Sequence record: PQ287279.1
Length of the DNA: 45,199 nucleotides
From: Pseudomonas phage Flu_PA14_4
Strand: one strand, 5' to 3'
The translations under genes were made by a program, and so were the position numbers. The notes under the pieces were generated by a model that saw nothing but the letters and a program-made list of their open reading frames with translations, had not been told where the DNA came from and ran no database searches. Below, piece by piece: positions 43,090 through 43,622 of the stretch (within the stretch, counting starts at the first letter, position 1; the number at the start of each line of letters is the position of its first letter).

Positions 43090-43317
43090 CTATTGGGAGG
43101 CCAGGCATTCAAGAGAGAATTGAACTGTATAGGGTGCGGCTCGATAGAGCTGGTGTGACTCGTCGCGCAGGTAGTTGCGGAAGCCAGGCCACGACAGGCC
43201 AAGTAGTTCCGCTGCTTGGCGCTGGCTGACACCTGCTTTGTCGACCAGCCCGCGCAGGTATCGCGGGTCTGGATCGTGGTTGGATGCATCAGGGGTTTTC
43301 ACGCCGGGAAATCTCAT
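43090..43317 (-). CDS. aca1: Aca1-like HTH anti-CRISPR-associated regulator
   Basis: 75-aa HTH (AGVSQRQAAELLGLS). It lies immediately downstream of and overlaps the acr gene, in reverse orientation to the late operon. Confidence 0.6.
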   Translation of the reverse strand: MRFPGVKTPDASNHDPDPRYLRGLVDKAGVSQRQAAELLGLSWPGFRNYLRDESHQLYRAAPYTVQFSLECLASQ

Positions 43318-43525
43318 TCATAGCGTTTTCAACACGACCGAGGCCACTGCCAGGCAGACCATAAAACCAAGATTCCAGTTGCTCCGTTGAGTCAAACTCA
43401 CGAGCACCAACGCTTTTGCCGTTTACGACGTTCTCAACGCGGGCTTTGATTTTGCTGCCATTTTCGTAAACGGCGATATTCATATAGTTCAGGTGATCGG
43501 TGCTGAGGTATTTGATGAACTTCAT
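43289..43525 (-). CDS. acrIF1: AcrIF1-like anti-CRISPR (type I-F), 78 aa
   Basis: Begins MKFIKYLST and ends NEISRRENP. It is 78 aa long. Residues Y6, Y20 and E31 sit where AcrIF1 has them. SD AAGGA upstream; AT-richer than its flanks. Confidence 0.65.
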   Translation of the reverse strand: MKFIKYLSTDHLNYMNIAVYENGSKIKARVENVVNGKSVGAREFDSTEQLESWFYGLPGSGLGRVENAMNEISRRENP

Positions 43526-43622
43526 GGTTTGAATCCTTCTTGGCGCCTCGCCGTTGTGGCTGGCATGGGTGTAGATTAATGGGTAACAACGTACACCAAA
43601 ACAACCGTTCGTCGGAGTAGGT

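Follow-up and report, generated by a model that had tools for sequence, protein, structure and literature searches.

The 45,199-nt stretch of phage DNA that we analysed (the window) very probably carries a functional acrIF1-aca1 operon, which is inserted in reverse, as a 545-nt segment, into the late operon of an Ab31-like phage, has its own promoter and a swapped cargo, and would be regulated by an Aca1 of the Ab31 type (type B). Two overlapping open reading frames on the minus strand, described in an initial annotation made from the sequence, were both found: one of 78 amino acids at 43289..43525 and one of 75 amino acids at 43090..43317, with an overlap of 29 nt equal to that of gp35 and gp36 in JBD30. 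Using phmmer, the 78-residue protein matched the AcrIF1 chains in the PDB (5xlo, 2lw5, 6b46 and 5uz9) over its full length with E = 2e-47, and the Pfam family PF20829 (Acr30-35_AcrF1) was matched with 185.5 bits (cut-off 30.5) across profile positions 1-78 of 78. The protein is identical to JBD30 gp35 at 75 of 78 positions, and the three differences, A10D, D43E and I65V, fall outside Tyr6, Tyr20 and Glu31, the surface of AcrIF1 that touches the Cas7f thumb (PMC6538845). All three of these residues are kept, in agreement with the earlier description of an AcrIF1-like protein with a few substitutions. We therefore identify 43289..43525(-), by homology, as a genuine copy of AcrIF1 with predicted inhibitory activity. 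The gene differs from that of JBD30 at four nucleotides, three non-synonymous and one synonymous, a ratio which alone does not demonstrate purifying selection.

The 75-residue protein matched the Aca1 structures 7c0g, 7fa3 and 7vjn with E = 3e-32 and 55 of 75 residues identical (73%), so that the proposed comparison of both frames with AcrIF1 and Aca1 gave significant similarity in each case, and the helix-turn-helix frame had been correctly named as Aca1-like. Its gene lies directly downstream of acrIF1 in one operon. Homology, position and the RNA motif described below place 43090..43317(-) in the Aca1 family, as a distinct subtype. GC-rich Pseudomonas DNA yields many spurious long open reading frames, and two such artefacts were rejected here: a 189-aa frame at 42720..43289(-), antisense to the endolysin gene, and a 177-aa frame at 43289..43822(-), which extends acrIF1 upstream in the same frame, through the promoter and orf57. 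That acrIF1 and aca1 could themselves be non-coding antisense artefacts of the lysis operon, or their resemblance to known proteins a coincidence, has next to no probability, and is refuted by full-length matches of 96% and 73% identity to proteins with solved structures at the E-values given above and by the absence of the segment from relatives with an empty site. GC content was 0.477 in acrIF1, 0.515 in the promoter and leader, 0.583 in aca1 and 0.56-0.59 in the flanks; the AT-richness first ascribed to both genes thus holds for acrIF1 and for the promoter and leader, but not for aca1.

Comparison of the whole window with known genomes indicates that the phage is an Ab31-like temperate podophage of P. 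aeruginosa, with a backbone colinear with that of Ab31 at 95-97% identity. The structural half of the window is colinear with vB_PaeP_Tr60_Ab31 at 95.5% identity, and the remaining half is a lambdoid mosaic with 97% identity to Ab31 over the alignable parts. Lambdoid genes for Q, NinG, replication protein O and DnaB are found in the same prophage, and the annotation of Ab31 under its match to the window includes Bet and CI/Cro-type regulators. The late operon runs rightward on the plus strand, and the acrIF1-aca1 cassette is reversed within it. Upstream of the cassette lie a Q-like gene (41500..41919, +), a holin gene (42328..42651, +; PF05106) and the endolysin gene (42648..43088, +; PF00959, E = 1.8e-43; phrog_7). 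On the other side follow orf57, which encodes a small hydrophobic protein of 57 aa (43623..43796, +; phrog_21424) and is divergent from the acr promoter, then orf82 (82 aa; 43806..44054, +), the Rz spanin gene (44047..44490, +) with the Rz1 gene embedded in it (44252..44446, +), orf68 (+) and the small terminase gene (44674..45138, +). The cassette had been placed between the endolysin and the spanins; it does adjoin the endolysin gene, but orf57 and orf82 intervene before the spanins. A 12.2-kb stretch of GCA_041355535.1, 100% identical to the window, joins base 45199 to base 1, and the window sequence is circularly permuted. As this match bridges the two ends, the late transcription unit that contains the cassette also continues into the terminase and structural genes at the start of the window.

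In the relatives FBPa19 and IME307 the site is empty, and the endolysin stop overlaps the orf57 start by 1 nt (GTGATGG), an overlap that suggests translational coupling. Alignment with the empty site delimits the inserted cassette to 43078..43622(-), 545 nt, and shows that it is a true insertion where the endolysin stop meets the orf57 start. These empty-site relatives confirm the initial proposal that the genes were inserted backwards into the lysis genes of a lambdoid podophage. The insert supplies the endolysin with a new three-codon tail (ENA, then the stop) and orf57 with a new Shine-Dalgarno sequence (GGAG, 43614..43617). The aca1 and endolysin genes are convergent, with their stops 1 nt apart.

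A promoter-like region and a Shine-Dalgarno sequence, both anticipated in the initial annotation, are present upstream of acrIF1. The Shine-Dalgarno sequence AAGGA (43534..43538, -) lies 8 nt upstream of the acrIF1 ATG and is found in all aligned acr-aca1 leaders. The -10 hexamer TAATCT (43573..43578, -) was assigned by homology with the JBD30 promoter, in which it is identical, and the -35-like hexamer TTTTGG (43596..43601, -), 17 nt upstream of the -10, was placed from spacing only. A generic sigma-70 scan of 42900..43900 called no promoter, and a terminator scan of the same interval found none downstream of aca1. The window lineage alone has TTTTGG, every other type-B promoter having TTGTGG, and this G to T change at 43599 should weaken the hexamer. 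The altered -35-like hexamer, a degenerate operator, the lack of a promoter call by the consensus scan and the excess of non-synonymous changes in acrIF1 could all be read as signs that transcription of the cassette is weak or absent in this lineage, which would make the cassette a decaying passenger with little contribution from AcrIF1. However, several independent assemblies agree exactly over both open reading frames, the Shine-Dalgarno sequence, the -10 and the RNA hairpin, all of which are intact; the three substitutions spare Tyr6, Tyr20 and Glu31; and the allele is widespread, since public assemblies list the identical AcrIF1 protein in 143 index blocks and it also occurs on plasmids. 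We consider such decay quite unlikely, and a functional operon remains our preferred reading.

The leader contains a 20-nt 5'UTR hairpin, GCCAGCCACAACGGCGAGGC (43545..43564, -), which ends 19 nt before the acrIF1 ATG and is identical to that of JBD30. It folds into a 3-bp lower stem, a bulge, a 3-bp upper stem and a 5-nt loop, with a fold z-score which alone is weak (-1.45), and no other regulatory element is strictly conserved in loci of both types, A and B. The window hairpin fits an Aca1-bound RNA motif reported in 2026 in acr-aca1 5'UTRs, where it lies directly after the transcription start and ends approximately 20 nt short of the acr start; Aca1 binds this motif in vitro, and no translational silencing by it was seen (PMC13551039). 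An Rfam search of the cassette region returned no family. Scanning genome contigs with the 20-nt pattern, which is GC-rich, gave at least about 120 matches, mostly chance hits in unrelated phyla, and among the matches listed there was one real acr-aca1 locus, L062 from Metapseudomonas otitidis.

Aca1-type inverted-repeat operators had also been expected in the promoter. The JBD30 promoter has two sites of the GGCACnnnGTGCC type, but a search for this consensus with up to 2 mismatches found none in 43526..43622, and over the whole window the same search gave 25 matches where chance would yield 31.7. JBD30 Aca1 owes its specificity for the core motif GGCAC to R44, V45, R47, Y48 and R59, while its phosphate contacts are made by S42, Y49, R22, S31 and Q32; homologues vary at R44 and V45 (PMC8633003). 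The recognition helix of the window Aca1 reads SWPGFRNYLR, compared to SDRVMRYYLS in JBD30, so that three of the five core-motif readers are changed (R44P, V45G and Y48N). The window protein retains R47 and R59, as well as R22, S31, Q32, S42 and Y49. Since three core-motif residues differ and the JBD30 operators are absent, any autoregulation must use a different operator, and Aca autoregulation by such a route is plausible.

Across the approximately 25 loci examined, many of which are near-identical copies, we observed that helix type and promoter type are paired without exception. A helix reading SDRVMRYYLS or GDRVMRYYLS is found with GGCACAnTGTGCC operators, and the SWPGFRNYLR helix with the type-B promoter ...TTGTGGTGTAC(R)TTGTTACCCATTAATCT. 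The candidate type-B operator in the window, TGGTGTACGTTGTTACCCA (43580..43598, unstranded), lies between the -35-like and -10 hexamers. It is a degenerate 19-bp palindrome with 5 of 9 pairs, which alone is not better than chance, and it ties as the best 19-bp palindrome with another 5/9 site of the same promoter, at offset -51. The other type-B promoters all have their best or joint-best 19-bp palindrome 34 nt upstream of the hairpin. In the M. otitidis orthologue, whose helix reads SWEGFRRYLR, the palindrome at the same -34 offset, TGGGGTCCATTGGACCCCA, is perfect (9/9), and JBD30 IR2 is a 9/9 palindrome at -30 from the hairpin. From these positions we infer 43580..43598 to be the best candidate operator. 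Our literature search found no description of a type-B Aca1 operator. A short-repeat search of 43500..43680 returned only 6-nt arms, and a GGTGTA/TACACC pair bracketing the -10 was dropped because conservation of its right arm does not extend to Ab31 or MPK9.

The absence of the JBD30 operators and the changes at R44, V45 and Y48 may indicate either that the type-B protein reads another operator, or that it is not a DNA-binding repressor here and acts mainly through the 5'UTR RNA hairpin, or on another target such as the divergent orf57 or the late genes. The strict conservation of the hairpin across type A and type B loci and the binding of Aca1 to RNA in vitro would agree with the latter. 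However, the phosphate-contacting and key arginine residues are kept, promoter type co-segregates perfectly with helix type, the related SWEGFRRYLR helix has a perfect palindrome beside it, at the equivalent place in the promoter, and the RNA motif produced no translational silencing. Regulation through RNA or another target is improbable in our judgement, and we favour repression by the type-B protein at an operator of its own. Throughout the loci examined, the type-B Aca1 lineage is accompanied by a promoter type of its own in place of the JBD30 IR1/IR2 operators, with 43580..43598 as the likely operator and the RNA hairpin unchanged.

We mapped the mosaic structure of the cassette using a multiple alignment and mismatch counts against JBD30, Ab31/MPK9, BUCT566 and the contig L007. 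A JBD30-like segment at 43262..43567(-) comprises the hairpin, the leader, acrIF1 and aca1 codons 1 to approximately 18, and shows 5 mismatches in 306 nt to JBD30 when read from 43567 to 43262. The sequences on both sides are of type B: 43618 to approximately 43568 has a single mismatch to BUCT566, at 43599, and 43261..43097 has 5 mismatches in 164 nt to Ab31/MPK9. In contrast, the 3' part of aca1 differs from that of JBD30 by approximately 47 mismatches in 160 nt. Both crossovers fall in blocks common to all acr-aca1 loci examined, namely the hairpin block CATGCCAGCCACAACGGCGAGGCGC and aca1 codons 16-24. The promoter and the part of aca1 encoding the helix-turn-helix can thus be assigned to the Ab31 type, and the acrIF1 segment is JBD30-like. 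Because the crossovers lie within conserved blocks, the operator and the recognition helix would have stayed matched while the acr gene moved. L007 has junctions equal to those of the window, with 0 mismatches from 43589 to 43262, together with another aca1 3' end, so that the chimera has evidently spread and undergone further recombination.

The mosaic is most simply described as a cargo swap, in which the acrIF1 segment, 98% identical to JBD30, would have replaced another acr gene by recombination inside the 5'UTR hairpin and the opening 16-24 codons of aca1. It provides a clean natural example of the swapping of acr cargoes, with breakpoints in two short conserved blocks, and resembles the laboratory design of isogenic acr phages, for which homology arms to the acr promoter and aca1 are used.

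Other cargoes occupy the same site. Cassettes are found at this position and in this orientation in Ab31, where the genes are gp66 (annotated 'transcriptional regulator') and gp67, and in MPK9 ('putative AcrIF7'); the cargo of both is AcrIF7, and the presence of AcrIF7 and Aca1 in the podophage Ab31 has already been published (PMC10155984). Two Ab31-like contigs from IMG/VR, which share the holin and orf57 flanks, carry AcrIF3 (L011) and AcrIE3 (L013). The occurrence of AcrIF7, AcrIF3 and AcrIE3 at one junction marks the endolysin/orf57 junction as a polymorphic acr locus of the Ab31-like group, in which AcrIF1 is the fourth known cargo. The novelty implied for the locus in the initial annotation is therefore not upheld, and the prophage itself was already public. 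Most of the contigs read for the identical AcrIF1 protein show the same prophage context, and one is plasmid-like. The plasmid pPA1045-2 (NZ_CP129996.1) carries a near-identical cassette, with 95.6% DNA identity, in which RefSeq labels the gene 'acrF1: anti-CRISPR protein AcrF1'. Our literature search found no paper on AcrIF1 in an Ab31-like backbone or on the empty site and the anatomy of the insertion, and no acr locus described between endolysin and spanin. The components are all known, the sequence is public and automatically annotated, and the find is correct but largely ordinary. Scientific interest attaches to an Aca1 variant that lacks the JBD30 operator and three base-reading residues, and whose regulation is undescribed in the literature searched.

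By homology, AcrIF1 would use Tyr6, Tyr20 and Glu31 to bind the Cas7f backbone of the type I-F Csy complex and would block hybridisation of the crRNA to target DNA. Blocking the Csy complex would protect the phage and, in a lysogen, neutralise the I-F system of the host. Leftward transcription is predicted to start from the operon's own promoter (-35-like 43601..43596, -10 43578..43573), which would make the operon independent of Q-dependent late transcription. In JBD30 and DMS3, acr genes are transcribed early and strongly and are then repressed by Aca1 (Stanley et al., 2019, as cited in PMC8027618). We infer the same logic for the timing and repression of the window operon, where an early burst of Acr followed by shut-off through Aca1 is the most likely course. 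As the cassette is reversed and has no terminator after aca1, unrepressed transcription would continue in antisense into the genes for endolysin and holin and would collide head-on with Q-dependent late transcription. This conflict is a plausible reason for keeping Aca1.

A broader proposal can be put forward only tentatively, and we hold it to be somewhat less probable than its negation. Type-B Aca1 may be a lineage of switched specificity with its own operator, the SWPGFRNYLR helix and the promoter being inherited together as a module, while homologous recombination, anchored on the invariant hairpin and the 5' end of aca1, swaps the acr cargo. Such a module would preferentially sit in reverse beside endolysin genes in Ab31-like and BUCT566-like backbones, with Aca1 repression avoiding a head-on conflict with Q-dependent transcription of the lysis, terminase and structural genes. 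By analogy with characterised AcrIF1, Ab31-like phages and related prophages could disable type I-F CRISPR-Cas, and this bears on phage therapy, on the prediction of host range, and on CRISPR-based typing and editing of P. aeruginosa.

Among the closest known systems, the acrIF1-aca1 operon of JBD30 is the presumed functional model for that of the window. JBD30 is a Mu-like siphophage, whereas the window holds a lambdoid podophage. The JBD30 operon is found between gp34 (tail completion/Neck1) and the head protease gene and is co-directional with its neighbours, unlike the window operon, which is reversed inside the lysis operon; the contrast drawn earlier with the Mu-like locus is thereby borne out. 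We take gp34 to be the 'G' gene mentioned in the initial annotation. The two operons share an identical -10 hexamer, an identical 5'UTR hairpin and the same Shine-Dalgarno sequence, with one base of the leader differing (43539), but 43526..43622 of the window lacks the operators IR1 and IR2 of JBD30 (GGCACAnTGTGCC).

Ab31 (gp67/gp66) and MPK9 share with the window the phage group, the site (endolysin, aca1, acr, orf57) and the reversed orientation, as well as the same type-B promoter and type-B aca1 (5 mismatches in 164 nt). They differ in their cargo, AcrIF7 instead of AcrIF1, in the first aca1 codons, which in the window (MRFPGVKTPDASNHD) came with the JBD30-like segment, and in the -35-like hexamer, where the window has G to T at 43599. 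L007 has an identical AcrIF1 protein and the same junction of type-B promoter and type-B aca1, and pPA1045-2 matches the window over the span, and at the DNA identity (95.6%), seen for L007. The context of L007 is that of a plasmid, with KfrA, ParE/RelB and MvaT genes. In both pPA1045-2 and L007 the divergent neighbour is a gene for a gp25-like lipoprotein and not orf57; homology of orf57 to this lipoprotein of BUCT566-type and plasmid contexts was ruled out, since there is no similarity. The 3' part of aca1 in these two plasmid-borne cassettes, unlike that of the window, is of the BUCT566 subtype.

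The acr-aca1 module of type B, which pairs the Ab31-type Aca1 with its own promoter type, was also found in a second, unrelated phage backbone, represented by phage BUCT566 (L004:1507-3346) and VB_EV13 (L005), where it carries either AcrIF2 or a protein of 100 aa as cargo. The module is again reversed in this backbone and adjoins the endolysin gene (phrog_181), and its other flank is a divergent gene for an 87-aa lipoprotein with an LAGC lipobox, which showed a weak match to Rz-like spanins (E = 3.6e-4). In BUCT566, aca1 and gp22 are convergent genes with a 43-nt overlap. The same acrIF1 allele as in the window is present in a plasmid-type context, on contig L007, and plasmid pPA1045-2 (NZ_CP129996.1, L148) contains a near-identical cassette. 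A diverged gp25-like lipoprotein gene (94 aa, L007:5618-5902), whose match to gp25 is limited to the first ~58 aa, has been retained beside the acr promoter of L007, which suggests that the cassette of the plasmid-type context was derived from the lysis region of a BUCT566-type phage.

In the empty-site phages FBPa19 and IME307, the endolysin stop and the start of orf57 share 1 nt (GTGATGG). This overlap was lost through insertion of the cassette in the window, and the insert provides a new SD for orf57 (43623..43796, + strand; phrog_21424). The product of orf57 is small and highly hydrophobic, and could be a so far undescribed membrane protein associated with lysis. Between orf57 and Rz lies an 82-aa ORF (43806..44054, + strand; phrog_6519), which is found in the window, the Ab31-like contig L011, FBPa19 and IME307. 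It is missing from Ab31 and MPK9, where the i-spanin gene directly adjoins orf57, and has the appearance of a moron or an indel within the lysis cassette. Two long minus-strand ORFs of 189 aa (42720..43289) and 177 aa (43289..43822), which between them cover sequence of the endolysin and aca1 genes, of orf57 and of the acr promoter, were rejected as genes and are most likely artefacts of GC-rich reading frames. A 12.2-kb stretch of P. aeruginosa GCA_041355535.1 (contig JAUEEQ010000012.1) with 100% identity to the window links base 45199 to base 1; the window sequence is circularly permuted, and because these bases are joined, the gene for the small terminase is contiguous with that for the large terminase.

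A G to T change at 43599 gives the acr promoter of the window a -35-like hexamer of TTTTGG, as against TTGTGG in all other type-B promoters. The change is lineage-specific, and is common to the identical prophages L006 and L008-L010. In contig IMGVR_UViG_2870682680_000002 (L014:1723), the first ORF past the type-B promoter has an AcrIF2-like start (MTKTA) and stops after 5 codons, with an intact aca1 downstream; this ORF may represent a pseudogenised acrIF2. An acr-aca1-like locus of Metapseudomonas otitidis DSM 17224 (L062:2330-2424) has the same 5'UTR hairpin as the window and an Aca1 helix of SWEGFRRYLR. A perfect palindrome of 19 bp, TGGGGTCCATTGGACCCCA, lies between its -35 and -10 elements, and the locus would be a helpful comparator for defining the type-B operator.
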